Origin: an uncultured Chloroflexia bacterium | Lineage (GTDB): Bacteria > Chloroflexota > Limnocylindria > Limnocylindrales > CSP1-4 | Direction of reading: 5' to 3' | Length of the DNA: 64,000 nucleotides | Assembly (NCBI GenBank): GCA_963728745.1 | Contig: CAVSKY010000006.1 | Coordinates: forward strand, 389,015 to 453,014 | Shown here: positions 2,207 through 44,447 of the stretch, in pieces | Layout of the letters: the number at the start of each line of letters is the position of its first letter | Position numbering within the stretch: the first letter of the stretch is position 1 | Notes under the pieces: model-generated | Told to the model about the DNA's origin: nothing | Databases searched by the model: none | What the model saw: only the letters and a program-made list of their open reading frames with translations | Translations under genes and position numbers: made by a program

Positions 2207-2424
2207 CGATCCGACACTAACAGGGGGTCGATGCCCCGAGGGTCAGGGATTTCCCGGAACGTCCGGACGGGATGCGACGGCTTGGCCGCAGGTCATCCGT
2301 CGTTGACGCTGCTGCGTATCGACGGGTGAAACGCGATTGCTTCCTTGCGCCGACGCGTCGTCTGGGGGACGTCCGTCGGCGCATCTGTTCCTGTAGCGAT
2401 CGCCTGGGCTCGGTCGCTTCCCCG

Positions 2425-3681: not shown

Positions 3682-4294
3682 CGGCCGCAGCGTACCGGAG
3701 GCACGGGCACGGTTCCCGGTCTGGTCAGGGGGTGTGCTTCACAGGCGGCAGATGATCGCCGAAGCGCGTCTCGAGATGCCGTCCGGCAGCGAAGCGTGCC
3801 TGCCAGCCACACGATCGGGTCGAGGAAGGACGGGCTGGCGGCTTCGACCTGCTCGTGCAGTCCAGCAAGCACACCGCACGAGGCACCCGGCGAACGTGGC
3901 GGCGCACAGCATGGCGCCGCGCACGAAAGCGCCCGAAGGAACTGGTGGGAGGACCGGCCAGTCGTCTCGCAACGGCTCCGAACAAGTCCGGAGTCCTTGC
4001 GCTCCGCCCGGGACCCTCGCTCGGTGGCCTTGCGGCCATCGAACCCGGTTCCCGGGACCGTCCCGAGGATCGCTCCCCGGTGCGGTCTGGCGGTTCGCAC
4101 CTGCCCCTTCGGGCAAGACGAAATGTACTTTCCACGGGTCGGCCGCCACAACCGCCTTATCCACGAACTTGGCCCAAATCACCTGGGCGTTATCCCCGAC
4201 TTTCCTGGCGATGTGGACGGAATGTGGACGGGCCCACCTGCAACATCCGCGCAAGGTCTGCGGGGCGTAGATTCAATCGACTGGAGGTGGGTGG

Positions 4295-16925: not shown

Positions 16926-17059
16926 GGGCCTTGTCCCGACATGGACGGATGACGATGCCGAATTCGGCATCTGACGTCGATGTCCGGGCGAGCGGCCAAG
17001 GGCGATGCTTCTCATGCGCACCGGACAGACCGGATGACGCAGAAAGGAGCGATCAAGCG

Positions 17060-17266
17060 ATGAACGCACTCGCGATCCTGTACGTGAACGCACATCTGCA
17101 GGACCTGCTCGACGAAGCCGCCGAGGCTCGCCTCCTGGCCGACCGCCCGTCGGTGTTCGAGCGGATCAGCTCCGCTGCGTCGAACGCGCTGGCCGCGCTG
17201 GCCATGCCGCTCGATAACCGGGGCACGATGTTCCCGAAGCTCGACGACTCGCCCAACCGGAGCTGA
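17060..17266 (+). CDS. Small hypothetical protein (68 aa)
   Basis: AAAGGAG-N11-ATG. It is followed at 17297-17340 by a strong hairpin and a T-tract. There is no recognisable domain. Confidence 0.35.
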   Translation: MNALAILYVNAHLQDLLDEAAEARLLADRPSVFERISSAASNALAALAMPLDNRGTMFPKLDDSPNRS

Positions 17267-17290
17267 GGCCTCCTCCCTCAGCTTCGTCCA

Positions 17291-17926
17291 TCACCGCGAC
17301 GACCCCCGTCCCTCCGACGGGGGTCGTCGTGTTTTCTGCGTCGGGTCCGGCAGGTCTGCCGGCGTGTCGATGTCGGTGAGCGTGGCGCCGGCAAGGTCGT
17401 CACGGCGCCAGATCGAGGCAGAGATGACCTTGGCGTCAAGCTCGCCGATCAGCGCTCGCAGGCGTCGCTCGCCGCTCGCGATCAACCGCTCGACCGCGGG
17501 TCGCGCCACGGACGGACGGATCGCCATCGGAAGCGGGCGAGGCCTCGTCTCGTCCGCCAGGACAGCCGCGTCGTGGTCGTCGAGCGCGACGATCAGCCGT
17601 TCGAGGACGGCCGGAACGAGGCCAGGCATATCGGCACCGACGACCACGACCCGATCGACCGTTGGATCCAGGGCCTCCAAACCGGAGGCCAAGCCGGACA
17701 AGGGCCCCTCGAACGGGAGCGCGTCGTGGACGATGGTGACGCCGTCACGGGCGCCTGCGGTAGCCCTCGGTGAGGTCACGACCAGGATGTTGCTCGTCAC
17801 CAACCGCACGGCGTCGATCGCGTGGTCGAGCATCGGCCGGCCGTCGATCGGCTCGACCAGCTTGTCGCGGCCGAACCGAGACGAGCGGCCGCCGGCCAGG
17901 ACGATCGCCGCCGTACGCTCGGTCAT
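17291..17926 (-). CDS. mobA: Molybdenum cofactor guanylyltransferase
   Basis: AAIVLAGGRSSRFGRDKL ... VVVGADMP are the MobA nucleotide-binding signatures. There is a 4-nt overlap with selB. Confidence 0.75.
   Translation of the reverse strand: MTERTAAIVLAGGRSSRFGRDKLVEPIDGRPMLDHAIDAVRLVTSNILVVTSPRATAGARDGVTIVHDALPFEGPLSGLASGLEALDPTVDRVVVVGADMPGLVPAVLERLIVALDDHDAAVLADETRPRPLPMAIRPSVARPAVERLIASGERRLRALIGELDAKVISASIWRRDDLAGATLTDIDTPADLPDPTQKTRRPPSEGRGSSR
17297..17340 (+). terminator. Rho-independent terminator-like hairpin, embedded in the 3' coding end of mobA on the opposite strand
   Basis: CGACGACCCCCGTC-CCTCC-GACGGGGGTCGTCG gives a 14-bp perfect stem. It is followed by TGTTTTCTG. Confidence 0.5.
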
Positions 17927-19686
17927 CGACCGGCGGCGGTGGGCGCCTTCGCTCCCGGGACGTGCCCGGCCGGCGTGCGGCGCAGGATCGCCCGCCGGTC
18001 GAGATCCTCGAGGATGGCCATCACGTACTTGCGGCTGGTCCCGGTGGCGTCGCGCAAGGCGGCAGGCGTCAGCGGCCCCCGCGTGGCCATCGTCAGGGCC
18101 CGTTCGGTCAGGGTCCGGTAGGTGGTGGCTGCGTAGGCCAGGTCCGCCTCGACGACGATGATCCGGCCGCTGCGCTCAAGATCGCGGATGCCTGCGGGCG
18201 AGCACCCAGCGACCCGTGCGGCCTCTGCCAGCGATGGCGGGGCGAGGACGTCGAGCATGGATTCAAGGCGGTCCATGGCGGCGACCATGGCCTGATCGGG
18301 GCCAGCCGGCGCCCGGCCGGCACGCCGTACGACGTCCCCGTCGCGTGCGAGGCGACCGTCGGCGACCAGCCGATCGATGACAGCGTTCGCAGCGGCTGAA
18401 GCGTCGTCGCGGCGGGTGGTCACGGCACGGCGCAGGGCTCGTGCCGCCGCGCTCCGCGCAGTCGATAGCGATGCCTCGCCGGGCACCGCGGCAAGGACCG
18501 CGTCGGCGGCGGCCGCTGTGACGTCCGGTGCCAGCTCTCCGTCCAGCATCCCGTGGAGGTCCAACCGCGCCGCCCGGTCGCCCGCGGCCAGGGCGGCGAC
18601 GCGCTCGGGCGTCTGCCGGCGGCGCGAGACCCCGCGCGCCGGGGTGCTATCGAGCACGACGCCGCCGACCGGCGCCCCCTGCGCTCCGCGGCGCACCACG
18701 AAGCGATCGCCCTGGCGGAGGGCGATCGGCTGACTGAGCCGGAGGATCCCAGCCGGTCGCCCGTCCGGCAGCGCGAGGGCATCGCGGCCGCTGCGGCCGA
18801 TCGTGCCGTCCACCGCTGCGGTCCCTGCGTGCACCCGCCCGCTGGCCCGGTCCCCGACGGGATCGCGGAACGCGACCAGGGCACGCTCCGCCGCGACGAC
18901 CGCCGGATCGGCGGTGAGCACCATCCCGCGATGCAGCTCCCGGGCGTCGATCCCGGCGACGTTCAGGGCGGTCCGACCACCCGTCTCGACGGCGTCGACC
19001 GGCGTCCCGTGGACCTGGATCTCGCGGATCCGTGCCGTCCGATCGCCCGGGACCAGCCTGAGCGTCTCCCCTCGTCTGAGCGGTCCGCCCCGCAAGGTGC
19101 CGGTAACCACCACGCCGCGACCCTTCACGGAGAAGACGCGATCGATCGCAAGGGTCGGTGGTCGAAGGGAAAGGCGGACGCGGTCTCGGAGGTCGATGAG
19201 CGCCTCGCGCAGGGCGTCCACGCCCGCCCCGGTCAACCCTGACGCGGCGACAACCGGCGCGCCGGCCATCGATGTCGCGGCCAGCAACGCGGCAACGTCC
19301 GCCCGAACGGCCTCGACCCGCTCGCGCGGGACCGCGTCGATCTTGTTCACGACCGCGATCGCGCGGCCGATCCCGAGCGCATCGAGCAGCGCGACGTGCT
19401 CGTGCGTTTGCGCGCGGAGTCCATCGTCCGCAGCCACGACGAGCAATGCAGCATCGATCTCGCCGGCACCGACGAGCATGTTGCCGACCAGCTTGTCGTG
19501 CCCCGGCACGTCGACGAAGTCGATCGTCGTGCCGTCGTCGAGATCGAGATGGGCATACCCGACATCGATCGTCATGCCGCGCCGACGCTCCTCGGGGAGG
19601 CGGTCCGCATCGATCCCGGTGAGCGCGCGGAGCAACGTCGTCTTGCCGTGATCGATGTGGCCGGCCGTGCCCACGACGATGGTCAT
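17923..19686 (-). CDS. selB: Selenocysteine-specific translation elongation factor
   Basis: G-domain motifs [17 protein letters not shown] and NKID. It is 587 aa with a long C-terminal winged-helix region. It lies immediately downstream of selA. Confidence 0.85.
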
Positions 19687-21050
19687 CGCCCGGCGAGCGC
19701 GATCCTGACCGTGGCGGCCAACCGCCGATCCTGATCAGGATGGACGGTTCGAAGGTCGAGCAGCACGCGATCGTCCTCGATCCGGCCGATCACCGCCTGG
19801 CGACCGCATCGTCGGATCCGAGCCAGCAGACCGTCGGCGGACGAGCTCGCGACCGCAACGCCGACCGACGGGATCGTCTCGCCAGGAAGGCTGCCGCCGC
19901 CGATGGTGGATGCCATCTCGGCGACTGACGCTGCAGACCCGATCCTGGCTGCAACCCGCTCAGCGCGGGCTCGCAGGGCATCGACCGGCGTCGCGATCAT
20001 GACCCACACAGGGATCTGCGACATGGCCAGGCCAGCCCGGTACAACCCCAACGTCGCCGCCACGCCCAGCAGCGTCGCCTTGTCAGGGCGCATGGCCCGC
20101 GCCAGCGGATCGCGCCGCATCCGGGCAATGAGGTCCCCTCGACCGACGACCAGACCGGCCTGCGGTCCACCGACGAGCTTGTCGCCACTGAACGTGACGA
20201 TGTCGGACCCTATCGCCAGGCGCTCGGCCGGGGTCGGTTCGTGGGCAAGCCCGAACTGCTCGGTCGGGAGCAGTGCCCCTGATCCGAGATCGTCGATGAC
20301 GAACGCGCCGTGTCGATGCGCGAGCTCCGCCACACGGCTGGGATCGGGGGACTCGGTGAAACCGGCCATCGAGAAATTCGACGGGTGCACCCGAAGCACG
20401 GCACGAGCCTTGCCTTCAGCCAGCGGGGCCTCGAAGTCCTCGGCGCGTGTCCGGTTGGTCGTCCCTACCTCGATGAGCTTCGCGCCGACACGCCGGATGA
20501 TGTCCGGGATGCGCACGCCGCCGCCGATCTCGACGAGCTCGCCGCGCGACACGACGACGCCGCCGCGGCCCGCCAGGCCGACGGCCAGCACGAGAGCGGC
20601 CGCGTTGTTGTTCGTGACCAAGGCATCGTCGGCGCCGGTCAGCGCGATGAGGAGCTCCTCGGCGCGTCGATAGCGGTGCCCTCGACGACCGGTCTCCCGA
20701 TCGATCTCCAGCAGCAGGTAGTCGGTCGCACCTGCGGCGTGGATCGAAGCGATCCTGGGCCACGGCGCGCGACCGAGATTGGTATGGACGATCACCCCGG
20801 TCGCATTGATGACGTAGTCATCCTCGAACGGGACCTGTGCGTCCAGCCTTTTGAGGACGTCATCGATGAGATCGCGGACGAGCCGCGGATCGTTCCCCGC
20901 GGCGATCCGCACCCGTTCCTCCTCGATCACCGCACGGGCCGCGTCGACGACAACATCGTGCTGGCGCTCGAAGCCTTCGCGCAGTCGCACCGACGTCAAC
21001 AGGCCGTCGACGCTGGGTGGACGCGGATGCACGACCGGCTTCGACGTCAT
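19683..21050 (-). CDS. selA: L-seryl-tRNA(Sec) selenium transferase
   Basis: Signature FSGDKLVGGPQAGLVVGR with the PLP lysine context. The start is taken as ATG at 21050 behind GGAGGA. This removes the overlap with tRNA-Sec that the track's 21092 start would create. Confidence 0.85.
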   Translation of the reverse strand: MTSKPVVHPRPPSVDGLLTSVRLREGFERQHDVVVDAARAVIEEERVRIAAGNDPRLVRDLIDDVLKRLDAQVPFEDDYVINATGVIVHTNLGRAPWPRIASIHAAGATDYLLLEIDRETGRRGHRYRRAEELLIALTGADDALVTNNNAAALVLAVGLAGRGGVVVSRGELVEIGGGVRIPDIIRRVGAKLIEVGTTNRTRAEDFEAPLAEGKARAVLRVHPSNFSMAGFTESPDPSRVAELAHRHGAFVIDDLGSGALLPTEQFGLAHEPTPAERLAIGSDIVTFSGDKLVGGPQAGLVVGRGDLIARMRRDPLARAMRPDKATLLGVAATLGLYRAGLAMSQIPVWVMIATPVDALRARAERVAARIGSAASVAEMASTIGGGSLPGETIPSVGVAVASSSADGLLARIRRCGRQAVIGRIEDDRVLLDLRTVHPDQDRRLAATVRIALAGR

Positions 21051-21060
21051 CAGTCCTCCG

Positions 21061-21157
21061 TGGCGGGAACGCGTGGGAGTCGAACCCACCACGCCACGCC
21101 GAGCGCGGCGTCACCGGTTTTGAAGACCGGGGAACCCACCGGGGCCCAACCGCTCCC
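21061..21157 (-). tRNA. selC: tRNA-Sec (anticodon TCA)
   Basis: The reverse complement folds with an 8-nt acceptor (7 pairs), a 6-bp D-stem with 4-nt loop, and an anticodon stem-loop CCGGT-CTTCAAA-ACCGG. It also has a long variable arm, T-arm GTGGG-TTCGACT-CCCAC, and genomic CCA. It lies directly upstream of selA. Confidence 0.75.
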
Positions 21158-21213
21158 GCACGGATGGTAATGCGGGGGTCGTGGAATGGCCCGGGCGCAC
21201 CAACCCAGCAAAG

Positions 21214-21283
21214 CCTTCGAAATCGAAGGATCGCGTTCGGCGATGGGTGATCGCCGTGAGAGAAAACCTTCGAAATCGAAGGA
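21214..21283 (+). promoter_or_regulatory. Twin 16-bp perfect palindromes CCTTCGAAATCGAAGG (at 21214-21229 and 21267-21282), 53 bp apart, in the selC/selD divergent region
   Basis: A 17-bp exact direct repeat, CCTTCGAAATCGAAGGA. Each copy is a 7-2-7 inverted repeat. The second copy overlaps the selD ribosome-binding site and start. Confidence 0.4.
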
Positions 21284-21284
21284 G

Positions 21285-22391
21285 ATGCTGGCGGCAATGC
21301 CGCCGGCGGAGCCGGAACGCGGGCCCGCCTATCATCGTCTCGTGGCGACCCTGTCCGACGTCCCGAGCCTGCGGCTCACAAGCCTCACCGATTGCGGCGG
21401 CTGCGCGGCGAAGCTTGGTGCCGACCTGCTCTCCGAGGCGCTCGCAGGACTCGGCGCCGAGGCGGCACCCGACGAGCTCATCGCCGGGCTCCAGCCACCG
21501 GACGACGCCGCGGCCTATCGCGTCAGCGATGACCTCGCGATCATCGGCACGGTCGACTTCTTCCCGCCGCTGGTCGATGACGCGCGGACGTTCGGCGAGA
21601 TCGCGGCCGCGAACGCGATGAGCGACGTCTTCGCGATGGGCGGCCGCGTCCTCTTCGCCCTGTCGATCGCGGCGTTCCCCGAAGAGCTGCCGCGGAACGT
21701 GCTGGCGGAGGTGTTCGGTGGGGCGTCGGACAAGGTCCGCGAAGCCGGCGGGACCCTGGCGGGCGGCCATACGATCCGCGACCCGGAGCCCAAGTACGGG
21801 CTGGCGGTCATCGGCGCCGCGCACCCGAATCGACTCCTGCGCAAGGGTGCGGCCAGACCCGGCGACCAGCTCCTGCTCACCAAGCCGCTCGGCACCGGCC
21901 TGCTGGTGAGCGGCGCGCGAGCGGGCCGGACCGAACCTGCGGACCTCGCCGCGGCCATCGAGGGGATGCGGACCCTCAACCGCGCGGCGGCCGACGTCCT
22001 GGTCGGCCATGGGGTGACGGCTGCGACGGATATCACCGGCTTCGGCCTGCTCGGCCACGGCCTCGAGATGGCGCGCGCATCGGGCGCGCGGCTCATCTTC
22101 GACGCGCGGAGCATCCCGCCGCTGGACGGAGCGCTCGACCTCGCGCGCGCAGGCGTCGAGACCGGCGGTGCCGCGCACAATCGACGATTCGTCGCCGACG
22201 AGCTGGCTGTCGCGGCGGGCGTGCCGGCGGAGCTCGTGACACTCGCCTTCGACCCGCAGACGAGTGGCGGCCTGCTCGCAGCGATCGATCCGGATCGGGT
22301 GGAGGGGGTCGTCGCCGGCCTGCAGGGCGCAGGCGTCGACGTCTGGCGGATCGGCCGCGTGGAGGCGGGCTCGGGCGTCGCGCTGGCCTAG
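21285..22391 (+). CDS. selD: Selenide, water dikinase (selenophosphate synthetase), Cys-type
   Basis: RLTSLTDCGGCAAKLG is the SelD active-site loop with Cys, not Sec. AIR-synthase-related fold motifs are present. The start could be 21285 or 21297. Confidence 0.85.
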   Translation: MLAAMPPAEPERGPAYHRLVATLSDVPSLRLTSLTDCGGCAAKLGADLLSEALAGLGAEAAPDELIAGLQPPDDAAAYRVSDDLAIIGTVDFFPPLVDDARTFGEIAAANAMSDVFAMGGRVLFALSIAAFPEELPRNVLAEVFGGASDKVREAGGTLAGGHTIRDPEPKYGLAVIGAAHPNRLLRKGAARPGDQLLLTKPLGTGLLVSGARAGRTEPADLAAAIEGMRTLNRAAADVLVGHGVTAATDITGFGLLGHGLEMARASGARLIFDARSIPPLDGALDLARAGVETGGAAHNRRFVADELAVAAGVPAELVTLAFDPQTSGGLLAAIDPDRVEGVVAGLQGAGVDVWRIGRVEAGSGVALA

Positions 22392-22978
22392 CGGAGTCGG
22401 ACGTACGCGCCGACGATGGTGGCGCCGATGCTGATCAGCACGGATGGCACGTACTGGAGCAGGAAGGCGTCAAGCGCGAGGGCTGGATAGCCGGTCTCTC
22501 CAGCGGCCTCGGCCATCGCCGCATACCCCAGCAGCTCCCGCCACAGCCCGACCAGCGACAGTGACGCGCCCAGCAGCCCGCCGATCGCGATCCCGGCGAT
22601 CGCGAGCGCGAGGATCCGTGGGCCGCGCTTGATGCCGATCGTCCGGTCGAGCGCCTCGGCGATGATCGTGCCGGCGAAGAAGCCGAGGACGAGCATGAAG
22701 AACCCGAACTGCGCCCCGAAATAGCCCACCACAGCCCCGAGACCCGTGGCGACGGCCAGCCCGATCGCGAGCTGCCTCGTGCTCAGCGACGCAAGGGCAT
22801 CGCGCGACGGCTTGCCGCACGTCCTGCAACGCAGCCCGACCGGACCCTGCATGGAGCAGCGGGTGCAGATCGGTTGATCGCAGCGACCGCAGCGGACCCA
22901 CGTCTCACGGTCCGGATGGCGGTAGCAGTAGAGCGGCGGCGGCTCGCTGAGATCCGCAGTCGCGGCGTCGGTGGTCAT
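22388..22978 (-). CDS. Membrane protein with N-terminal zinc ribbon (CYRHPDRETWVRCGRCDQPICTRC) and glycine-rich TM helices
   Basis: Start is ATG at 22978 behind GAGGGGA. Four cysteines form a ribbon, followed by about 4 TM helices. It is a paralogue of the 30754-31455 gene. Confidence 0.5.
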   Translation of the reverse strand: MTTDAATADLSEPPPLYCYRHPDRETWVRCGRCDQPICTRCSMQGPVGLRCRTCGKPSRDALASLSTRQLAIGLAVATGLGAVVGYFGAQFGFFMLVLGFFAGTIIAEALDRTIGIKRGPRILALAIAGIAIGGLLGASLSLVGLWRELLGYAAMAEAAGETGYPALALDAFLLQYVPSVLISIGATIVGAYVRLR

Positions 22979-23073
22979 GTGTCCCCTCGCATGAACGATG
23001 CGGAGGTTGCCGTTCGAACGGCCCGTCGTCAAGCGGTACACTCGGGCGGTCGTCATCCGCAGGAGTCCACCGA

Positions 23074-24987
23074 GTGGCACGACCCTACGTACGACTGACC
23101 CAGCCCCTCGTGCGCGACGAGAAGGGCGGCGAGCTTCGACCAGCGACCTGGGATGAAGCGCTGGACCGCGTGGTCGCCGGGTTCCAGGCCGCGAGGGCGG
23201 CCCACGGCCCGACGACATTCGGCACCTTCAGCTGTAGCAAGGCGACCAACGAGGTCAACTTCGCGGCACAGAAGTTCAGCCGGGTGGTCCTGGGCAGCAA
23301 CAACATCGACAGCTGCAACCGCACCTGACACGCCCCGAGCGTCGCCGGTCTGGCGACCGTGTTCGGTGCCGGTGGGGGGACCAGCTCATATCGTGAGGTC
23401 GAGGACACCGATCTGATCGTCCTCTGGGGCAGCAATGCCCGCGAGACGCATCCGATCTTCTTCCACCACGTCCTCAAAGCCGTGCACAAGGGAGCGCGGC
23501 TGTATGCGGTCGACCCGCGCCGGACGTCCAGCGCGGAATGGGCCGACACGTGGCTTGGCCTCGACGTGGGCAGCGACATCGCGCTGGCCAATGCCATCGC
23601 CCGCGAGATCATCGCGTCGGGCCTGGAGCATCGCGAGTTCATCGAGCGGGCGACCGCCGACTTCGACGCCTACAAGGCCAAGGTCGAGTCGTACACGCTC
23701 GACTATGCCGAGCGCGAGACGGGCGTCCCGGCCGACGTCATCAAGGAGCTGGCGCACGCGCTGGCGACCGCGCCGCGGGCGATGATCTGCTGGACGTTGG
23801 GGATCACCGAGCACCACAACGCGGTCGACAACGTCCTGTCCCTGATCGACCTCGTCCTGCTCACCGGACACGTCGGTCGCTACGGGAGCGGCGTCAACCC
23901 GCTCCGTGGCCAGAACAACGTCCAGGGCGGCGGCGATATGGGCGCCCTGCCCGATCGTTTGCCTGGCTTCCAGCATGTCGAGAACGACACGCTCCGAGCG
24001 AAGTTCGACGCCGCCTGGGGCGTCACCGTCCCGCCGCAGCGTGGCTGGCACCTGTCGGGCATGTTCGACGCCATGGAACGGGGTGACCTGACCGCCGTGT
24101 ACTGCATCGGCGAGAACCCCGTCCAGTCGGAGGCCGACCAGCACCGCGCCATCCGGCTCCTCGAGGGCCTCGACATGCTCGTCGTCCAGGACCTGTTCCT
24201 GACGAAGACCGCCGAACTGGCGGACGTCGTCCTGCCGGCGAGCGCCGCATGGGCCGAGGGCGAGGGGACGGTCACCAACTCGGAGCGACGCGTCCAACGC
24301 GTCCGCAAAGCGGTCGAGCCGCCTGCGGGTGCCCGGGACGACCTGGCGATCATCTTCGACCTCGCGCGGCGGATGGGCGCCGACTGGGGCGACGCTGGCG
24401 CCGAACGCGTGTGGGACGAGGTCCGCGCGCTGTCGCCCGTCCATGCCGGGATGAGCTACCAGCGCCTCGAGGAGCTCGGCGGCATCCAGTGGCCGTGCTA
24501 CGACGAGGACCATCCCGGCGAGCTATTCCTCCACAGCCGGCTCTGGGAGGATCCGGTCCCGGGCAACCGCGTCCCGTTCGTTCCCGTCGACCACGACCCG
24601 CCGGTCGACAAGCTCACCGACGAGTACCCCATCCGGCTGACGACGGGCCGCCGGCTCGATTCCTACAACACCGGGGTCCAGACGGCCGGGTACACCTCGC
24701 CGCTGCGGCGTGGCGAGTCACTCGACATCTCGCCCGAGGACGCCGAGGCATACGGTCTGGCGGATGGCGAGGTCGTGTGCGCGATCTCGCGGCGCGGGCG
24801 GGTCGAGGTACCGGTCAGGATCGATCCGTCGCTGCGCCCGGGTCTCACGTTCATGACGCTCCATTTCCAGGACGACGTCGCCACGAACCTGCTGACGATC
24901 GACGCCACGGACCCGAAATCCGGCACCGCCGAGTTCAAGGCGACCGCGATCCGGATCGAGAAGCTCGCACAGCCCGTCTCGGCCTGA
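23074..24987 (+). CDS. fdhF: Formate dehydrogenase catalytic subunit (FdhF-like bis-MGD molybdo/tungstoenzyme), selenocysteine-containing, lacking the N-terminal Fe-S domain
   Basis: GTG at 23074 behind AGGAG. The in-frame TGA at 23326-23328 sits inside the conserved FDH active-site block NNIDSCNRT-U-HAPSVAGL. The same reading frame continues through 24987 and is strongly FdhF-like. Confidence 0.85.
23338..23360 (+). promoter_or_regulatory. SECIS-like mRNA hairpin GUCGCC-GGUCU-GGCGAC, 12 nt downstream of the UGA
   Basis: It mirrors the E. coli fdhF SECIS apical stem-loop (GGUCUG loop, encoding VAGL). Confidence 0.6.
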
Positions 24988-24992
24988 CCAAG

Positions 24993-25370
24993 GTGGCCGC
25001 CTCATCCGGGATCACCATCGTTGCCGCAGGCGACCTCGTCGATAACGTTCCGACACTTGGCATGCAGCGCCGCGAGGCAGCGGCTGGTGGGGCACGTATC
25101 ATCGCCGTGCGGACGCGACCGGGACTCGTATCGGGCTGGCACCATCATGCTGGATACGCGACCTACGGCTATGTCATCGCCGGACACCTCCGACTCGAGA
25201 GCGGGTCGCACGGCGCAACGGTGGTCGAGGCTGGGCCAGGCGACTTTTTCATCGTCCCGCCGGAAACGGTCCATCGAGAGAGCAACCCGTCTGACGAGGA
25301 GCAGGTGATCGTCGGGTTTCGGATCGGCGAGGGCGAAACGGTCGTGAACGTGGAAGGTCCCGATGGCTGA
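24993..25370 (+). CDS. Cupin-domain protein
   Basis: SGWHHHAGYATYGYVIAGHLRLE and GDFFIVPPETVHRESN are cupin motifs 1 and 2. The start could be GTG at 24993 or ATG at 25062. An 8-nt overlap joins it to the next gene. Confidence 0.6.
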   Translation: MAASSGITIVAAGDLVDNVPTLGMQRREAAAGGARIIAVRTRPGLVSGWHHHAGYATYGYVIAGHLRLESGSHGATVVEAGPGDFFIVPPETVHRESNPSDEEQVIVGFRIGEGETVVNVEGPDG

Positions 25371-26184
25371 GATCCCGGCGCAGCAGCAAGCTGACGATCA
25401 AGAGGACGGCGGGACGGAATTCGTCTCCGACCCCATGTGGGAGCGGCTGCTGAACGACCCCAATTCGGGGTTCGCCGCGGGCCGTGGGTTCCTCCGCATG
25501 CTCCCGAGTGATCCCCGCTGCAAGATGTGCGCCGCTCCGTTCGCAGGGCCCAGCGCGCCATTCATGCGGATGATCGACCGTGGTCGGTGGGACAAGAATC
25601 CCTCGATCTGCGGCCTGTGCTTCAAGCAGCTCGAGAAGGCTCGGGGCGGCGCCGAGATCGAGCTGAGCATGCTCTTTGCCGACGTGCGCGGATCGACCGG
25701 CCTTGCGGAGCGGATGGGCCCGGGCGCCTTCCAGAACCTCCTGGCCCGGTTCTACAAGGCAGCCACGAATGCCCTCGTGGCACGCGACGGCATCATCGAC
25801 AAGTTCGTCGGCGACGAGGTCGTCGCGCTCTTCCTGCCCGTCCTGGCGGGTCACGACCACGCGGCACACGCGATCGACGCAGCTCAGGAGTTGCTGCGCG
25901 CGACCGGGCATGCGACCGAGGGTGGACCGTGGATCCCCGTCGGCGCCGGTGTCCACACCGGGGTCGCGTACGTCGGGGCCATCGGCGACACCGTGACCGA
26001 CTTCACCGCGCTCGGCGACAGCGTCAACGTCACGGCGCGGCTCGCCTCGGCGGCGGGACCCGGGGAGATCCTCGTCAGCGCCGCCTCGGCGACCGCCGCC
26101 GGGCTCGACCAAAGCCTCGAGCTGCGCACGCTCACGCTGCGCGGTCGCGCGGAGCCCCTAGACGTCCGCGTCCTACGGGTCTGA
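25363..26184 (+). CDS. Class III adenylate/guanylate cyclase with N-terminal zinc ribbon
   Basis: Zinc ribbon CKMC...(16)...CGLC. Cyclase-homology-domain blocks MLFADVRGST, FVGDEVVALF, HTGVAYVGAIG and LGDSVNVTARL. Confidence 0.8.
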   Translation: MAEIPAQQQADDQEDGGTEFVSDPMWERLLNDPNSGFAAGRGFLRMLPSDPRCKMCAAPFAGPSAPFMRMIDRGRWDKNPSICGLCFKQLEKARGGAEIELSMLFADVRGSTGLAERMGPGAFQNLLARFYKAATNALVARDGIIDKFVGDEVVALFLPVLAGHDHAAHAIDAAQELLRATGHATEGGPWIPVGAGVHTGVAYVGAIGDTVTDFTALGDSVNVTARLASAAGPGEILVSAASATAAGLDQSLELRTLTLRGRAEPLDVRVLRV

Positions 26185-26232
26185 CCCGCCGGGGGCCGGT
26201 TCGACGCCCGAGCGGCGCTACACTCGAACGCG

Positions 26233-28080
26233 ATGGACCTGCACGTCATCGGGCCCCTCGCCTCCCCGGCCGAACGCGCCGCGGTCGACAGCGTCCTTGG
26301 CCCGCCCGAGTCCGGCTGGGTCGGCGGACCGCGCCGAGCCGGCGTGGAGGGACACGCCGCCCGCGGCGGTCACGCGATCCGCGCGAAACGGTCGCAGCTG
26401 CTGCCCGCCCTCCATGCCGTCCAGGACCGCATCGGTTGGATCAGCCAGCCAGCGCTGAACTACATCTCGCGCCGGTTGGCAGTCCCGCCGGCCGAGGCGT
26501 ACGGCGTGGCGACGTTCTACGCCCTGTATGCCACCGATCCGCGACCGCCGGTCATGGCGCACGTCTGCGACGACATCGCGTGCCGACTGGCCGGGGCGGA
26601 GCGGATCTGCGAGGACCTGGCGCGGTCGGTCGGGCCTGAAGGAGCAGCGACGGGCGACGGGCGACGGGGCTGGCTACGCTCCCCGTGTCTCGGGCTGTGC
26701 GAGCTGGCCCCGGCCGCGCTGATCACCAGCGCGGGCGAGTCGGGCTCGGTCATGAGCGCGGCCCCGGTCGATGCCGCCGGGATCGTCGCGCGGCTCGATG
26801 CCGGCGCGACCGTACGCGCGCCGCGCCCGGTGCCGCAGGCCGGTGACGGATCAGTCCGGCTCCTGCGCCGCATCGGCCTGGTCGATCCGACGTCGCTCGA
26901 CGACTATCGCGCGCACGGCGGGTACAGCGCGCTCCCAACGGCGCTCGAGATGGGCGCCGAGGCGGTGATCGGCGAGGTCACGGCCTCGAAGCTGATGGGC
27001 CGCGGTGGCGCGGCATTCCCGACTGGTCGTAAGTGGGCCGCCGTCGCCACCCAGCCCGCCCAGCCGCACTACATCGTGTGCAACGCGGACGAGTCGGAGC
27101 CGGGCACCTTCAAGGACCGCGTGATCCTCGAGGGCGATCCGTTCGCGGTCGTCGAGGCGATGACGATCGCCGCATTCGCGACGGGCGCCAGCCAGGGCTA
27201 CATCTACATCCGGGGCGAGTATCCCGAGGCGGAGTCGGCAGTCCGTAACGCGCTCGCCGCCGCGCGCACGGCCGGCCTGCTTGGCGGGGACATCCTCGCG
27301 TCGGGTTTCGCGTTCGACATCGAGGTCCGCCGAGGCGCGGGCGCGTACATCTGCGGCGAGGAGACGGCGCTCTTCGAGTCGATCGAGGGCAAGCGCGGCG
27401 AGCCGCGCAACAAGCCGCCGTTCCCGGTCGAGGTCGGGCTGTTCGGGAAGCCGACCGTCGTCAACAACGTCGAGACGCTGATCAACGTGCCGCTCGTGCT
27501 GGAGATGGGCGGCGAGGCGTACGCCCGTATCGGGACGGAGGGCTCGACCGGGCCGCGGCTGTTCTGCCTGTCGGGCAACGTCGCACGGCCGGGCGTGTAT
27601 GAGGTCGAATTCGGCGCGACCCTCGCCGAGCTGATCGAGCGCGCCGGCGGCGTTCCGGGTGGGCGAGCGATCCGCGCGATCCTGCTCGGCGGCGCGGCGG
27701 GCGTGTTCGTGGGTCCCGATTCGTTGGACATGCCGCTCACGTTCGAGGCGACCAGGGCGGCCGGGGCGACGCTCGGATCAGGCGTGATCATGGTCTTCGA
27801 CGAGACCGTCGACCTCGTCGACACGCTTCGCCGGATCGCACAGTTCTTCCGGGATGAGTCGTGCGGTCAGTGTGTCCCCTGCCGCGTCGGGAGCGTCCGC
27901 CAGGAGGAGCTGCTGGCTCGGCTCGCGGCGGGATCGCCGGTCCGGTCGCGGGACGATGAGCTGGTACTCCTGCGCGAGGTCGGCCAGGCGATGCGCGATG
28001 CGTCGATCTGCGGGCTCGGTCAGACCGCCTCGTCCGCCATCGAATCGGCCCTCCGGCGACCGGGACTGGTGGCGCTATGA
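26233..28080 (+). CDS. NuoE-NuoF fusion (NAD(P)H-binding flavoprotein, FdsG+FdsB / HylC+HylB-like)
   Basis: The N-terminus is a thioredoxin-like 2Fe-2S domain (HVCDDIAC...SPCLGLCE). After that come GRGGAAFPTGRKW (FMN site) and GAGAYICGEETAL (NADH site). The C-terminus has ESCGQCVPCR...ICGLGQ (4Fe-4S). Confidence 0.85.
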   Translation: MDLHVIGPLASPAERAAVDSVLGPPESGWVGGPRRAGVEGHAARGGHAIRAKRSQLLPALHAVQDRIGWISQPALNYISRRLAVPPAEAYGVATFYALYATDPRPPVMAHVCDDIACRLAGAERICEDLARSVGPEGAATGDGRRGWLRSPCLGLCELAPAALITSAGESGSVMSAAPVDAAGIVARLDAGATVRAPRPVPQAGDGSVRLLRRIGLVDPTSLDDYRAHGGYSALPTALEMGAEAVIGEVTASKLMGRGGAAFPTGRKWAAVATQPAQPHYIVCNADESEPGTFKDRVILEGDPFAVVEAMTIAAFATGASQGYIYIRGEYPEAESAVRNALAAARTAGLLGGDILASGFAFDIEVRRGAGAYICGEETALFESIEGKRGEPRNKPPFPVEVGLFGKPTVVNNVETLINVPLVLEMGGEAYARIGTEGSTGPRLFCLSGNVARPGVYEVEFGATLAELIERAGGVPGGRAIRAILLGGAAGVFVGPDSLDMPLTFEATRAAGATLGSGVIMVFDETVDLVDTLRRIAQFFRDESCGQCVPCRVGSVRQEELLARLAAGSPVRSRDDELVLLREVGQAMRDASICGLGQTASSAIESALRRPGLVAL

Positions 28081-29183
28081 CCGAGGACACGACCGGCCTG
28101 TCGATGACGCGCGACCCCGCGCCCGACCCGCAGTCGCCGCACGCGGGCCAGCCGCCGGCCGCGCAGCCACTGACCGAGATCGTCCTGTCGCCGCCGGCGC
28201 GCCCGTCGAAGCCGCCGGTGCCGCCGCCGGTCGACGCGCCGCCGCAGGTCGAGCTGACCATCGACGGGCGACCGGTGTCGGTGCCCGCCGGGACCACCAT
28301 CCTCGATGCCTGCCGCGAGCTCGGCATCGACACGCCGACGCTCTGCTACGCGGAGAACCTGACCCCCGTGAACGTCTGCCGCGTGTGCGTGGTCGAGGTC
28401 ACCGGCGCACGAGTGCTCGCACCGGCCTGCTCGCGCGCGGTCGAGCCGGGCATGGACGTCCAGACCGACACCGAGCGTGTCCGCACATCGCGCAAGGTGG
28501 TGCTCGAGTTCCTCGGCTCGTCGGTCGACGTGTCGCTGACGGGCCCCGCCGTACCCGACGGCACGATCCACGCATACATGGAGCGGTACGGCGCGGATCC
28601 ATCGCGGTTCGGCCCGCCGGCCGAACCCGCGGCCGCGGGGGAGCGCGACGCACACCAGCCCGGCCACCATCACGCGCCGAGTGCGGGGGAGGCGGCGTTC
28701 GCGGCGACGGTCGCCCAGCCGACCAAGGTCGACAACGACCTCTATGTCCGCGACTACTCGAAATGCATCCTCTGCTACAAGTGCGTCGAGGCGTGTGGGG
28801 AGGACGCACAGAACACGTTCGCCATCGCCGTCGCCGGGCGCGGCTTCGATGCGCGGATCTCGACCGAGCAGGCCGTCCCGCTGCCGGAGTCGGCGTGTGT
28901 GTACTGCGGCAACTGCATCGGCGTTTGTCCGACCGGCGCACTGATGGCCAAGCCCGAATACGACATGCGCGCGGCCGGCACGTGGGACGAGTCCGCCCAG
29001 ACCGTGACCTCGACGATCTGCCCGTACTGCGGCGTCGGTTGTGTGGTCGACCTGCACGTCCAGGACGACCGCATCCTCAAGGTGACGTCGCCGCTCAATT
29101 CGTCCGTGACGGACGGCCATCTGTGCATCAAGGGCAGGTTCGGCTTCGAATTCGTGAACGAGCGACCGAAGCCCCCGGCGTGA
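28077..29183 (+). CDS. NuoG-like Fe-S subunit: 2Fe-2S ferredoxin + 4Fe-4S clusters + Mo-bisMGD-type Fe4S4 domain (N-terminal module of FdhA, HylA-like)
   Basis: ATGA overlap with the previous gene. There is a Pro-rich N-terminal linker. Cysteine motifs are CRVCVVE, CILCYKCVEACGE, CVYCGNCIGVCPTG, ICPYCGVGCVVD and GHLCIKGRFGFEF. Confidence 0.8.
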   Translation: MTEDTTGLSMTRDPAPDPQSPHAGQPPAAQPLTEIVLSPPARPSKPPVPPPVDAPPQVELTIDGRPVSVPAGTTILDACRELGIDTPTLCYAENLTPVNVCRVCVVEVTGARVLAPACSRAVEPGMDVQTDTERVRTSRKVVLEFLGSSVDVSLTGPAVPDGTIHAYMERYGADPSRFGPPAEPAAAGERDAHQPGHHHAPSAGEAAFAATVAQPTKVDNDLYVRDYSKCILCYKCVEACGEDAQNTFAIAVAGRGFDARISTEQAVPLPESACVYCGNCIGVCPTGALMAKPEYDMRAAGTWDESAQTVTSTICPYCGVGCVVDLHVQDDRILKVTSPLNSSVTDGHLCIKGRFGFEFVNERPKPPA

Positions 29184-29611
29184 ACCTCACGCCGGCCGAA
29201 GGCGACCTGCTGACCAAGGCGCGCCGCGCGACGCTTGCGACGATCGCCCCGACCGGCCGGGCACGTCTCGTGCCGATCTGCTTCATCACGATCGACGACG
29301 TCCTGTGGTCGCCCATCGACCAGAAACCCAAGGCGACCGGGGATCCCCACGGGCTCGCGCGGGTCCGCGACATCCAGGCTCGGCCTGAGGTGACGGTGCT
29401 GGTCGACCAGTGGTCCGAGGACTGGTCGGACCTGGCGTGGCTCCGGCTCCACGCTCGTGCCGTCCTGATCGAGCCCTCCGATGTCCCGACCGCCACCGTG
29501 GAGGCGCTGCGCCAGCGCTATCCGCAGTACCGGGAGCACGACCTCGAGCACCGACCCATGCTCAAGATCACGCTCGAACGCGCGACGAGCTGGTTCGCCG
29601 CAGATCGGTGA
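29180..29611 (+). CDS. Pyridoxamine 5'-phosphate oxidase family protein (PPOX-class, probable F420/FMN-dependent)
   Basis: GTGA overlap with the upstream gene. 143 aa, with the PNPOx-like split-barrel pattern (ATLATIAPTGRARLVPICF). Confidence 0.65.
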   Translation: MNLTPAEGDLLTKARRATLATIAPTGRARLVPICFITIDDVLWSPIDQKPKATGDPHGLARVRDIQARPEVTVLVDQWSEDWSDLAWLRLHARAVLIEPSDVPTATVEALRQRYPQYREHDLEHRPMLKITLERATSWFAADR

Positions 29612-29777: not shown

Positions 29778-30650
29778 TCAGCCCCAGCCGGTCAGGTCGC
29801 GCAGGTCGATCCGGCGGTCGTGGCTGTACACATTGAAGCCGTCGCCACGCAGGAAACCGACCAGCGTCACCCCCAGGCGCTCCGCGGTCTCGACGGCCAG
29901 GTCCGAGGGCGCCGACACCGCCGCCACGATCGGCGCACCGGCGACGGCGGCCTTCTGGATGATCTCGAAGCTGACGCGGCCCGACACCATCACGATCCGG
30001 TCGTGCAGTGGCAACGACTTCGCCAGCAGCTGCGATCCGACCAGCTTGTCGAGCGCGTTGTGGCGGCCGACGTCCTCGCGCAGCGCCAGCAACTCGCCCG
30101 CCGGGGTGAACAGCGCGGCCGCGTGGAGTCCGCCGGTCTCATCGAACGCCTTCTGGGCCGCACGCAGCAGGTCGGGCAGGGCGACGATCACCGCGCGCGG
30201 CACGACCGGCCCGTCGGGGAGCGGATCGCAGCGCATCACCACCTCGTCGATCGACGCCTTGCCGCAGATCCCACAGGAAGCCGTCGCCACGAAGTGGCGC
30301 TCGGCGATGGCCGATGCGTCGAACGAGGTCGAGAGGCGAACGACGATGGTGTCGTCCGGCTGGTTGAGCGTGACCGGGTCGCCGGTCTCGGTCCCGACGA
30401 CCTCGGGACCCGTGATCAGACCCTCGGTATGCAGGAAACCGACCGCCAGTTCAGCCTCATGGCCGGGGGTCCGCATCGTGACCGCGACGGCCACGGGATC
30501 CTGATCGGGACCCGCGGCACGGATCTCGAGCGGCGCTTCCCCGACGACACGGTCGGAGCGGACCTCGAGCGAGCCGCCGCGCACCGCCACGATCGAGCGC
30601 GTCGTGATGTGCCGAGTGGGCGGAGCCGTCCCTTGCGCGTGCTGGGCCAT
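29778..30650 (-). CDS. fdhD: Formate dehydrogenase accessory sulfurtransferase
   Basis: CGICGKASID (active-site Cys loop) and GRHNALDKL. The start is probably ATG at 30650; the track's first ATG is 30716. Confidence 0.85.
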   Translation of the reverse strand: MAQHAQGTAPPTRHITTRSIVAVRGGSLEVRSDRVVGEAPLEIRAAGPDQDPVAVAVTMRTPGHEAELAVGFLHTEGLITGPEVVGTETGDPVTLNQPDDTIVVRLSTSFDASAIAERHFVATASCGICGKASIDEVVMRCDPLPDGPVVPRAVIVALPDLLRAAQKAFDETGGLHAAALFTPAGELLALREDVGRHNALDKLVGSQLLAKSLPLHDRIVMVSGRVSFEIIQKAAVAGAPIVAAVSAPSDLAVETAERLGVTLVGFLRGDGFNVYSHDRRIDLRDLTGWG

Positions 30651-30753
30651 GTCCGGCGAGTGTACTGGTGTACCCCGGACCGTCGGCGGGTCGTCCGCGG
30701 AGCCGACCATCGCCATACTCGCGCCGCCGGTCGACCGCCTGTCGACGGCTGGT

Positions 30754-31455
30754 ATGAAGGGGTCCTACTCCGTGAACGATTGGGTCTGCGGCAACTGCAA
30801 GTCGATCAACCGCGGCGCGGCGAACGCGTGTTACAGCTGTGGTGGCGCCCGGGAGATCGTGGCTGCCTCAGCACCGATCATCCCGATGACCGGGCAGTCG
30901 ACCGTTTCGAGCGGGGATGGTGGCGTCGGCGTCGCCGCCCTCGCATCACCGTTCGATCCGGCGATGGTTGCTGGTGGCGCCGCCGTGGCTCCTGCTGCGG
31001 CGACAGCTCCGGGGCAGCCGGCCGGCGCGAGCAACATCCTCGGCGGGTTCGTGGGTGGCCTTGTCGCAGCGGCCCTGGCGACCGCCGTGTGGTACGGCGT
31101 CGTGGCCGTCACCCAGTATCAGATCGGCCTGGTCGCCATCGCGGTCGGCTTCATCGTCGGCTACGGCGTCGTCCTGGGCGCGAACCGGCGTGGGTCCGTG
31201 CTGCTCGTGCCGATCTCGGTCATCTTCACGCTGCTGGCGCTCGTCATCAGCGAATACCTCATCGTCGCCCACTTCGTGAGCCAGGAGTTCGCGGCCGAGG
31301 GCCTGACGATCGACCTGGTCCAGCCACCCGACTTCGTCATCAGTGTGGTGATGGACTCGCTCCAGGCGGACCCGCTGACGCTAGTCTTCTGGGCGATCGC
31401 CCTGTTCCAGGCATTCGTGATCCCCTCGCGGACGATCGGCCGCAGCAACAGCTAG
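30754..31455 (+). CDS. Membrane protein with N-terminal RanBP2-like zinc ribbon (WVCGNCKSINRGAANACYSCGG) and glycine-rich TM helices
   Basis: A four-Cys ribbon is followed by an Ala/Gly-rich linker and about 4 TM helices. It is a paralogue of the 22388-22978 gene. Confidence 0.5.
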   Translation: MKGSYSVNDWVCGNCKSINRGAANACYSCGGAREIVAASAPIIPMTGQSTVSSGDGGVGVAALASPFDPAMVAGGAAVAPAAATAPGQPAGASNILGGFVGGLVAAALATAVWYGVVAVTQYQIGLVAIAVGFIVGYGVVLGANRRGSVLLVPISVIFTLLALVISEYLIVAHFVSQEFAAEGLTIDLVQPPDFVISVVMDSLQADPLTLVFWAIALFQAFVIPSRTIGRSNS

Positions 31456-43614: not shown

Positions 43615-44447
43615 GGATCGCCCGGTTCATCCGTAGCTGGTCGCTGGATGTCGTCGCGTGGGTCGTGGCCGGCATCGTGTTCGTCGTGCCGTTCGTGTTC
43701 ATCGTCTTCACCGCGGCGAAGGACCGGGCCACAGCGTCACGGCTCGAATTCACCCCTCCCAGGGAGTGGCAACTGGTCCAGAACCTCCTCGACGTCGTCG
43801 GATTCCGTAACGACCTGATGGTCACGGCCCTGCGCAACAGCCTGATCCTGACCGTCCTGTCGGTGACGCTCATCGTGCTGTTCGCGGCGATGGTCGGGTT
43901 CGTGCTGCAGCGCCGTCGCGATCGCATGGCGCGCGTCGTCAGTGCGCTGGTGCTGGCCGGGTTGATCATCCCGCCGGCGGTGGTCCCGACGATCTACGTG
44001 TTGCAAACGATCGGCCTGTTCAAGACCTTGATCGGCCTCACGCTCGTCGAGGTCGCGTTCCTGCTCCCGTTCTCCGTACTGATCTTCCGGGCCTTCGTCG
44101 CGAGCATCCCGCGCGAGCTCGATGAGGCGGCGATCATCGACGGCGCGACCCCGATCCGGCTGTTCGTCCACGTCATCTTCCCGCTGCTCCGGCCGGCGGT
44201 GATCACGGTGATCGTCGTAGCCTCGGTCGCGATCTACAACGACTTCGTGAATCCGCTCTACTTCCTGCCGGGCAACGAGAATGCGACCGCCCAATTGACG
44301 CTGTTCGCGTTCCAGAGCCAGTTCAACACCCGCTGGAACCTGCTGTTCGCCGACGTCCTGCTCATCACGATCCCGCCGCTGATCATGTTCATCTTCTTCC
44401 AGCGCCAGATCGTGTCCGGCATGGCGGCAGGGGCGGTCAAGGGATGA
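43611..44447 (+). CDS. Sugar ABC transporter permease (MalG/UgpE type)
   Basis: ATGA overlap with the previous gene. EAA motif DEAAIIDGATPIRLFVHVIFPL. Confidence 0.8.
   Translation: MRIARFIRSWSLDVVAWVVAGIVFVVPFVFIVFTAAKDRATASRLEFTPPREWQLVQNLLDVVGFRNDLMVTALRNSLILTVLSVTLIVLFAAMVGFVLQRRRDRMARVVSALVLAGLIIPPAVVPTIYVLQTIGLFKTLIGLTLVEVAFLLPFSVLIFRAFVASIPRELDEAAIIDGATPIRLFVHVIFPLLRPAVITVIVVASVAIYNDFVNPLYFLPGNENATAQLTLFAFQSQFNTRWNLLFADVLLITIPPLIMFIFFQRQIVSGMAAGAVKG

Follow-up and report, generated by a model that had tools for sequence, protein, structure and literature searches.

The stretch of DNA analysed here, 64,000 nucleotides (nt) from an uncultured Chloroflexia bacterium (contig CAVSKY010000006.1 of GenBank assembly GCA_963728745.1), is hereafter called the window, and all coordinates are window positions. 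Its forward strand contains a frame of 638 codons (23074..24987) with a single internal stop, a TGA at codon 85. As judged from its sequence, and with a probability that we put at roughly 0.9, this frame is one gene and would encode a 69.5-kDa, selenocysteine (Sec)-containing catalytic polypeptide of a cytoplasmic, NAD-linked formate dehydrogenase (FDH) of the FdsABG/Fdh1AB type, with molybdenum or tungsten bound by two molybdopterin guanine dinucleotides (Mo/W-bis-MGD). A Sec codon stands at the metal-ligand position, a hairpin under selection follows it, a complete Sec pathway is adjacent, and the cofactor modules of an FDH are distributed over three genes accompanied by FdhD and MobA. By these marks the gene is a genuine selenoprotein gene of an ordinary, known kind, whose product would incorporate selenium at the UGA codon. 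The gene and its two signals are as follows.

23074..24987 (+): catalytic (Mo/W-bis-MGD) part of the FDH alpha subunit, predicted to contain Sec, 637 residues, predicted 69.5 kDa; from Pfam, TIGR01591 and Protein Data Bank (PDB) matches
23326..23328 (+): UGA codon for Sec, residue 85, followed by the catalytic His; from the alignment to U140 of FdhF and from TGA across the clade and in the relatives L089, L090 and L091
23341..23357 (+): minimal Sec insertion sequence (SECIS) hairpin, 6-bp stem GUCGCC/GGCGAC, loop GGUCU; from pairing, frozen synonymous sites, covariation and loss in the absence of Sec

Reading frame and UGA codon

The TGA (23326-23328) lies in the context NIDSCNRT*HAPSVAGL (in read-through translation, NIDSCNRT*HAPSVAGLATVFGAGGG), and the list of open reading frames (ORFs) cuts the frame there into 23074..23328 (84 amino acids (aa), beginning with GTG) and 23359..24987 (542 aa, also beginning with GTG); the second GTG is 31 nt past the TGA. 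The gene starts with GTG and has a Shine-Dalgarno-like sequence of its own, AGGAG, 8 nt upstream. Only Molybdopterin (235.6 bits) and Molydop_binding (88.8 bits) were found on it by Pfam. The TIGR01591 model (Fdh-alpha; curated cutoff 666.25) matches the catalytic polypeptide alone over profile positions 53-672 with 653.4 bits; profile positions 1-52 score 51.6 bits on another ORF, 28077..29183, and the two pieces together reach, as a rough sum, about 705 bits, which is above the cutoff.

When Cys was substituted for UGA-85 in the query, the PDB matches were solved FDHs, with E=1e-120 to 1e-142, the best of them being FdhF of the hydrogen-dependent CO2 reductase (HDCR; 7qv7, E=2e-142). In the alignment with Escherichia coli FdhF (1aa6, E=1e-139) residue 85 stands opposite the X that denotes Sec140 (U140; ARVXHGPSVAGL), and it likewise stands opposite the catalytic Cys of 7qv7 and 7bkb. 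The U-H...R-G-Q motif, which is the canonical active site of class I FDHs (PMC8808070), is present, with T-U-H at residues 84-86 and Arg278 in PLRGQNNVQG.

Relatives were scanned with one genome per GTDB species, which gave 80 loci of 71-91% aa identity (loci are cited below as L with a number). The metagenome-assembled genomes (MAGs) that hold them are labelled Chloroflexota/Limnocylindria, Acidobacteriota, Planctomycetota, Methylomirabilota/Rokubacteria and Actinomycetes, with a few others, and binning may misassign contigs. The resulting clade set draws on at least five phyla and, counting the window, comprises 84 non-redundant sequences; 83 distinct sequences served for codon entropy and 63 distinct rows for pairing. 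TGA occupies the Sec column in 84/84 sequences, with no sense codon, and is also found there in the more distant L089, L090 and L091. Strong purifying selection is seen on both sides of the TGA, and the codons between it and GTG 23359 are kept as protein. Six relatives from the clade with the divided alpha subunit (see below) are without Sec and carry Cys (L086, L087, L092) or Arg (L085, L088, L093) at this column.

The Arg forms (CGT or CGG; DRARHAPS) occur in the same split operon, that of L085 lying near 8001 (+). L085 and L088 are NCBI assemblies of Streptomyces isolates in which the neighbouring Cys of the SC motif is lost, and L093, a Logan assembly, keeps that Cys. Arg at the column of the metal ligand suggests a changed or lost catalytic function.

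Most of what the original prediction had proposed for this frame is borne out. A 638-codon frame interrupted by TGA at 23326-23328 and split in two by the ORF track is what the coordinates give, and the read-through alignment places the TGA at the Sec column of Sec-type FDHs. The proposed product of about 70 kDa agrees with the 69.5 kDa calculated, and the automated truncation that had been foreseen is seen in 120/120 of the best database relatives, each of them annotated as a protein of about 542 aa beginning just past the TGA, at 85% query coverage. A sense codon at the column, with the TGA outside the conserved block, had been named as the counter-evidence to look for; the TGA was found inside the block throughout the clade. 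The designation as a Sec-encoding FDH stood in respect of Sec and failed in one other respect, as the gene is not a complete FdhF/FdhA and its Fe4S4 domain is supplied in trans at 28077..29183.

Hairpin downstream of the UGA codon

The hairpin GTCGCC-GGTCT-GGCGAC (17 nt) begins 12 nt after the A of the TGA, and the first G of its loop is 19 nt after that A. Bacterial SECIS elements have been described as a stem of 6-8 bp with a conserved G about 20 nucleotides downstream (PMC4605307), and the 6-bp stem and the loop G at 19 nt fit this description. The sequence of E. coli fdhF (TGA CAC GGC CCA TCG GTT GCA GGT CTG CAC C, checked against 5,419 genomes) shows that GGUCU is found there at an equal offset from the UGA and codes the same V-A-G-L. 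Hairpin, spacing and likeness to the fdhF loop had all been predicted and were recovered at 23341-23357; within the computed fold, the 6-bp upper hairpin proved to be conserved, whereas the lower stem did not, and folding energy gave no support (see Alternative explanations).

Synonymous sites are frozen only within the 17-nt hairpin. For codons +5 to +9 (V, A/V, G, L, A) the entropy of the third position is 0, 0, 0.32, 0 and 0 bit, and at the flanking four-fold codons (+2, +3, +4, +10, +11, +13 and onwards) it is 1.2-1.8 bit. The Gly codon GGT is retained in 79/83 distinct sequences; in the genes of the window GGT makes up 13% of Gly codons, and the probability of the observed codon series given the peptide is 0.007. 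The upper 6-bp helix is paired in 100% of the 63 distinct rows, and substitutions affect three of its pairs and always give G.U (14 rows with C5 to U, 4 with A16 to G and 1 with C17 to U), each change altering the amino acid. Compensatory changes are found in two Sec-type relatives, L089 (51% identity; GUCACC/GGUGAC, G-C to A-U) and L090 (42% identity; GUGGCC/GGCCGC, C-G to G-C), both with the GGUCU loop and the 12-nt spacing intact. Moreover, none of the six split-clade relatives in which Cys or Arg occupies the column keeps the hairpin or uses GGT for the Gly; L087 and L088 even code the identical VAGLA without a hairpin (GTG GCA GGG CTC GCG and GTC GCG GGG CTC GCC, respectively). Judging by these codon and pairing patterns, the hairpin is under selection as RNA.

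As for chance, the exact 17-mer with at most two mismatches has 0.17 expected occurrences per window, and a GGU-loop hairpin 8-16 nt downstream accompanies 3/329 of the window's TGAs that have at least 40 open codons on either side. Two other selenoprotein candidates, TGA 45765 (+) and TGA 30418 (-), also have GGU-loop hairpins and long frames; they were rejected as chance matches because they are out of frame with the 903-aa gene 44444..47155 and with fdhD, respectively.

Sec decoding genes and the genetic code

The genes for tRNA-Sec, SelA, SelB and SelD all lie within about 5.5 kb upstream of the catalytic gene, and beyond selB lies a mobA-like gene.

17291..17926 (-): mobA-like molybdenum cofactor guanylyltransferase gene; Pfam NTP_transf_3 123.4 bits, MobA equivalog models below cutoff
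17923..19686 (-): selB, Sec-specific elongation factor; TIGR00475 307.3 bits (cutoff 242.25)
19683..21050 (-): selA, L-seryl-tRNA(Sec) selenium transferase; TIGR00474 435.6 bits (cutoff 267.9), Pfam SelA 373.8 bits
21061..21157 (-): tRNA-Sec (selC), anticodon UCA; ARAGORN, and Rfam RF01852 72.4 bits against a gathering score of 47
21186..22391 (+; ORF limits): selD, selenophosphate synthetase of the Cys type (DCGGCAAK); TIGR00476 343.9 bits (cutoff 125), residues 63-370

SelB has a C-terminal winged helix (Pfam SelB-wing_3, 47.6 bits, residues 534-575), and the true start of selD is probably near codon 55-62. All of the checked genes other than selD (6/6) end in TGA. UGA is therefore an ordinary stop in this DNA and its recoding requires a local signal; a reassignment of UGA in the genetic code, which was also considered, is ruled out by the same gene ends.

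Several details of this region may be recorded here. About 10 nt separate the end of the tRNA-Sec from the likely ATG of selA (21050), and the longest selA ORF (GTG 21092) would overlap the tRNA. The order selC-selA-selB-mobA is co-linear, as in mycobacteria (PMC13449736). A weak match to Rfam ar14, an alphaproteobacterial small RNA, with CUCCUCCC-containing hairpins, was obtained at 17236..17332 (+) (28.3 bits, E=0.039, the gathering score being 58.8); the matched segment extends into the 3' end of the mobA-like gene, and chance is the probable cause.

A divided alpha subunit

Downstream of the catalytic gene the following features were found.

about 25002-25370 (+): cupin; Pfam Cupin_2 44.5 bits
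25363..26184 (+): class-III cyclase-like gene; Pfam Guanylate_cyc 50.8 bits
26233..28080 (+): NuoE-NuoF fusion (NuoEF), NAD(H)/FMN diaphorase resembling FdsG+FdsB, 615 aa, predicted 63.9 kDa; 2Fe-2S_thioredx, Complex1_51K, SLBB, NADH_4Fe-4S, and NuoF/NuoE models
28077..29183 (+): Fe-S part of the alpha subunit, 368 aa, predicted 38.8 kDa; Pfam Fer2_4 and Molybdop_Fe4S4, TIGR01591 positions 1-52, alignment to FdsA
29778..30716 (-): fdhD, FDH accessory sulfurtransferase; TIGR00129 164.9 bits (cutoff 140.9), Pfam FdhD-NarQ 219.1 bits, NF001943 259.4 bits (under its cutoff of 269)

In every solved homologue among the PDB matches the Fe4S4 domain is in cis. Here no Molybdop_Fe4S4 domain was found by Pfam on the catalytic polypeptide; the domain is in trans, at the C-terminus of the 368-aa protein (64.1 bits, residues 309-361; CPYCGVGC...CIKG), where it follows NuoG-like 2Fe-2S and 4Fe-4S domains, and residues 313-364 of this protein are those that match positions 1-52 of TIGR01591. 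On the FdsA chain of Rhodobacter capsulatus (6tg9_A) the Fe-S ORF covers residues 18-305 and the Sec gene residues 308-932, so the two genes correspond to one FdsA-type alpha subunit that is cut exactly after the Fe4S4 domain. The stop codon of the NuoEF gene overlaps the start of the Fe-S ORF (ATGA), and the catalytic gene and the Fe-S piece are 3 kb apart, with the cupin, the cyclase-like gene and NuoEF between them.

The order of catalytic gene, 0-5 kb of intervening cargo, NuoEF and Fe-S piece is kept in nearly all loci that are long enough, usually with FdhD close by. Such split operons were found in Chloroflexota, Acidobacteriota, Planctomycetota and Actinomycetes, including Streptomyces isolate genomes with the Cys or Arg forms. 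The operon of L091 has both the TGA and the hairpin, and NCBI assigns its product to the cultured actinomycete Allonocardiopsis opalescens; Actinoallomurus iriomotensis and Halopolyspora algeriensis are further candidate cultured carriers of the Sec-type split operon. Among clearly fused relatives the nearest is P0127 (911 aa, 47% identity, Cys). In L089 (598-2655) the Fe4S4 domain is on the catalytic gene, and in L090 (1-2304) the whole NuoG-like N-terminus is fused to it. No published description of the split was found in full-text searches of the literature or in the FDH phylogeny of PMC8808070, which does not prove that none exists; the divided alpha subunit is a modest variant in architecture, apparently undescribed and widespread among soil phyla.

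A tie between the split and the use of Sec was considered. It is weakened by the split forms with Cys or Arg in Streptomyces and Nonomuraea and by the unsplit Sec forms L089 and L090, and the idea of an adaptation to Sec decoding is thus unsupported. That the split is adaptive at all is a conjecture that we regard as unlikely. It might uncouple the inefficient, selenium-dependent decoding of UGA from the assembly of the Fe-S/flavin scaffold, in which case failed recoding would yield only a 9-kDa peptide and not an Fe-S truncation of about 450 aa that could poison NuoEF. Or it might make the catalytic domain an exchangeable cartridge, an idea that rests on the Sec, Cys and Arg variants within the same operon frame. 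Either route, if true, would mean natural electron transfer from Mo to Fe4S4 across an FDH subunit interface.

The cargo at 25002..26184 is variable and outside the conserved system, as relatives have other genes or none there. L002 and L003 carry a formamidase (FmdA_AmdA) and an amino-acid permease (1838-4261), and there is no cargo in L004 (11632-11914) or in operons of the Streptomyces type. In L087 (518-9719), from Nonomuraea jiangxiensis, the Cys-type catalytic gene and FdhD adjoin genes for an oxalyl-CoA decarboxylase-like thiamine pyrophosphate enzyme, a family III CoA-transferase, an acyl-CoA synthetase-like protein and MoeA, with no NuoEF or Fe-S piece within 8 kb; this neighbourhood may link oxalate breakdown to formate. 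In the window, a PNPOx-like gene (pyridoxamine 5'-phosphate oxidase family; 29189..29611, +) directly follows the Fe-S piece, a position kept in L001-L004. Cys-rich predicted membrane proteins with a zinc-ribbon-like N-terminus flank the FDH region at 22388..22978 (-) and 30604..31455 (+), and neither has a Pfam or NCBIfam match; the former is divergent from the Sec gene across an intergenic region of 95 nt.

Alternative explanations

Several observations weigh against the interpretation as a SECIS-bearing selenoprotein gene of an NAD-linked FDH. No excess stability was found for the fold (minimum free energy (MFE) -29.8 against -30.0 +/- 3.3 kcal/mol in shuffles, z = 0.05), and folding energy was dropped as support since it is uninformative in DNA of 70% G+C. 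There was no Rfam SECIS match at E<=1 within 17000-27000 nor at gathering score in the whole window, which does not exclude a real SECIS. An extended, E. coli-like lower stem (CACG/CGUG) in the MFE fold was rejected, being 74% paired with its outer pairs broken in about half of the relatives; the lower stem of E. coli-type SECIS models is thus unconserved here and only the 6-bp upper hairpin is kept. Loop variants exist, GGGCU in three sequences and GGACU in one. No double compensatory changes occur in the 63 rows of the close clade, so that the shuffle control was flat and uninformative, and the covariation depends on the two distant relatives L089 and L090. Because the relatives are akin to one another, independent events are also fewer than the counts of sequences imply. 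At the protein level, the TIGR01591 score of the lone catalytic polypeptide is just below the cutoff. NAD+ as the acceptor and the direction of the reaction are suggested by subunit homology and gene neighbours, and selenium incorporation, activity and complex formation are what we infer from the genes. For the hairpin it is the comparative evidence that is decisive, and the context discriminates where folding energy does not.

If the fold is no stabler than shuffles, the hairpin could be a by-product of the V-A-G-L-A-T peptide in a G+C-rich genome, with any read-through independent of it; Cys-type enzymes conserve the peptide as well, and the lack of close-clade double changes and of an Rfam match would agree with this. 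However, L087 and L088 encode the same VAGLA by other codons without forming the hairpin, none of the six Cys or Arg relatives has it, the synonymous freezing is confined to 17 nt with the scarce GGT kept in 79/83 sequences, and amino-acid changes within the stem are only wobble-preserving or compensatory, all of which makes a by-product very unlikely. The TGA itself might be a nonsense mutation in a Cys-type FDH gene, as could be thought from the truncated calls of the 120 best database relatives, each of about 542 aa, and from the usual role of UGA as a stop in this genome. Such a pseudogene is hardly conceivable when 84/84 sequences of the clade, spread over several phyla, share the TGA, when strong purifying selection acts on either side of it, and when the gene is accompanied by a dedicated hairpin and by the full Sec machinery. 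Two genes without Sec, namely a 9-kDa peptide ending at the UGA and a 59-kDa protein re-initiated at GTG 23359, would account for the 542-aa ORF that opens 31 nt after the TGA. Partial termination is moreover to be expected, PMC4513850 giving a recoding efficiency of 30-40%, and so incomplete, even for E. coli. Yet the products would be without the metal-ligating residue and would divide the conserved block NIDSCNRT-U-HAPSVAGLATVFGAGGG, which is continuous and in frame in all relatives; the Cys relatives read straight through the column, and the codons from TGA to GTG 23359 are conserved as protein, so that re-initiation of this kind is extremely unlikely.

The remaining alternatives leave the Sec gene in place and concern what it belongs to. 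A real selenoprotein that is not a formate:NAD+ oxidoreductase, having another substrate or another acceptor or serving mainly as a CO2 reductase, would be in keeping with the slightly low TIGR01591 score, with the label of many relatives as only a 'YjgC'-type oxidoreductase (JGI), with the use of menaquinone instead of NAD by YjgC/ForC relatives (PMC8808070), and with Arg at the ligand column of some Streptomyces homologues. On the other hand, the best PDB matches are all FDHs, the U-H...R-G-Q motif is intact, FdhD is adjacent, a NuoE-NuoF fusion and a NuoG-like subunit are present as in the NAD-linked FdsABG, and the two pieces sum, roughly, to about 705 bits on TIGR01591; we hold this alternative to be unlikely. 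The separation of the catalytic gene from the Fe-S piece by 3 kb of DNA with unrelated genes could possibly reflect an assembly error, a frameshift or a rearrangement confined to this one genome. The same order and the same domain boundary recur, however, in dozens of independent assemblies, including complete chromosomes and isolate genomes, and the catalytic gene has its own Shine-Dalgarno-like sequence and start codon, which leaves an artefact with next to no probability. One gene for a Sec-containing catalytic polypeptide of an NAD-linked FDH is accordingly the interpretation that we retain.

Proposed mechanism

Selenophosphate would be made by SelD, and Ser-tRNA(Sec) would be converted by SelA into Sec-tRNA(Sec), which SelB-GTP would deliver to the ribosome. 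SelB is expected to be held by its C-terminal winged helix on the 17-nt hairpin, 12 nt 3' of the UGA and within the codons for V-A-G-L-A-T, so that UGA-85 would be decoded as Sec. In the mature enzyme Sec85 would ligate Mo or W, with His86 and Arg278 completing the formate site; FdhD would sulfurate the cofactor and the MobA-like protein would make the MGD. The 69.5-, 38.8- and 63.9-kDa proteins would presumably assemble into a complex. In it, the 38.8-kDa protein, which would be co-transcribed with the NuoE-NuoF fusion, would contribute the NuoG-like Fe-S chain and the Fe4S4 domain, including the conserved Lys of that domain. Electrons would then pass from Mo/W-MGD across the subunit interface to Fe4S4 and along the Fe-S chain to FMN and NAD+. 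The physiological direction may, tentatively, be formate oxidation, as is suggested by neighbours in relatives, namely formamidase (L002, L003) and oxalyl-CoA decarboxylase with formyl-CoA transferase (L087).

Implications for annotation

The Sec and SECIS part of these results is textbook biology, and its value is practical. Since all of the 120 closest database entries are truncated, a widespread FDH clade of soil bacteria is mis-annotated and deposited without its catalytic residue. The failure of annotation is systematic, and it distorts reconstructions of formate and one-carbon metabolism in MAGs of Chloroflexota, Acidobacteriota and Planctomycetota. The frozen 17-nt hairpin provides a clean, alignable set of SECIS elements for a clade without an Rfam match and could seed a covariance model. 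Every solved FDH has its Mo site and its proximal Fe4S4 cluster linked within one chain. If the split functions as proposed, this link can be formed between subunits, and this is of interest for the engineering of FDH modules toward CO2 reduction.

Relation to known systems

The gene resembles fdhF of E. coli (1aa6/1fdo) in that its product is of the same family, with Sec followed by His at the homologous column, and in the GGUCU hairpin 12 nt on and the decoding by SelA, SelB, SelC and SelD. FdhF differs in having its own N-terminal Fe4S4 domain, which is why the alignment starts at FdhF residue 61, and in partnering hydrogenase 3 rather than a NuoEF-type diaphorase. In the E. coli fdhF element the stem is GUUGCA/UGCAC, a U is bulged and the lower stem is longer, whereas the stem in the window is a perfect, G+C-rich helix of 6 bp.

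The cofactor layout is the same as in FdsABG(D) of R. capsulatus and Cupriavidus necator (6tg9/6tga), an NAD-dependent Mo-FDH, which has NuoE- and NuoF-like modules and an adjacent gene of the FdhD type as well. However, FdsA is one chain of 958 aa with a Cys ligand, and the alpha subunit of the window is cut between FdsA residues 305 and 308; the window also differs in placing the catalytic gene first, in the predicted Sec ligand, and in the fusion of the FdsG- and FdsB-like modules. Similarly, the alpha subunit of the tungsten FDH Fdh1AB of Methylobacterium extorquens (7vw6/7e5z) is matched at E=3e-121, and the beta subunit of that enzyme is, we assume, a NuoE-NuoF fusion as in the window; Fdh1A, unlike the window's alpha subunit, is a single unsplit chain of about 990 aa. 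In clostridial complexes of the FdhF-HylABC type the catalytic subunit is presumably separate from the NuoG-like Fe-S subunit, and in this the window is like them. These enzymes and the FdhF of HDCR, aligned from residue 63 of 7qv7_S onwards, nevertheless keep Molybdop_Fe4S4 on the catalytic subunit, so that the window is cut on the other side of this domain.

In mycobacteria, selC is directly upstream of selA-selB, one SECIS-bearing FDH selenoprotein adjoins the sel genes, and the common use of UGA as a stop leads to an annotation problem (PMC13449736). The window shares with this system the order of the sel genes, the adjoining FDH selenoprotein gene and the difficulty of annotating UGA. The mycobacterial enzyme, on the other hand, is an FDH of the FdoG/FdnG type of about 1,060 aa, from another branch of the family (TIGR01553-like) and with another SECIS.

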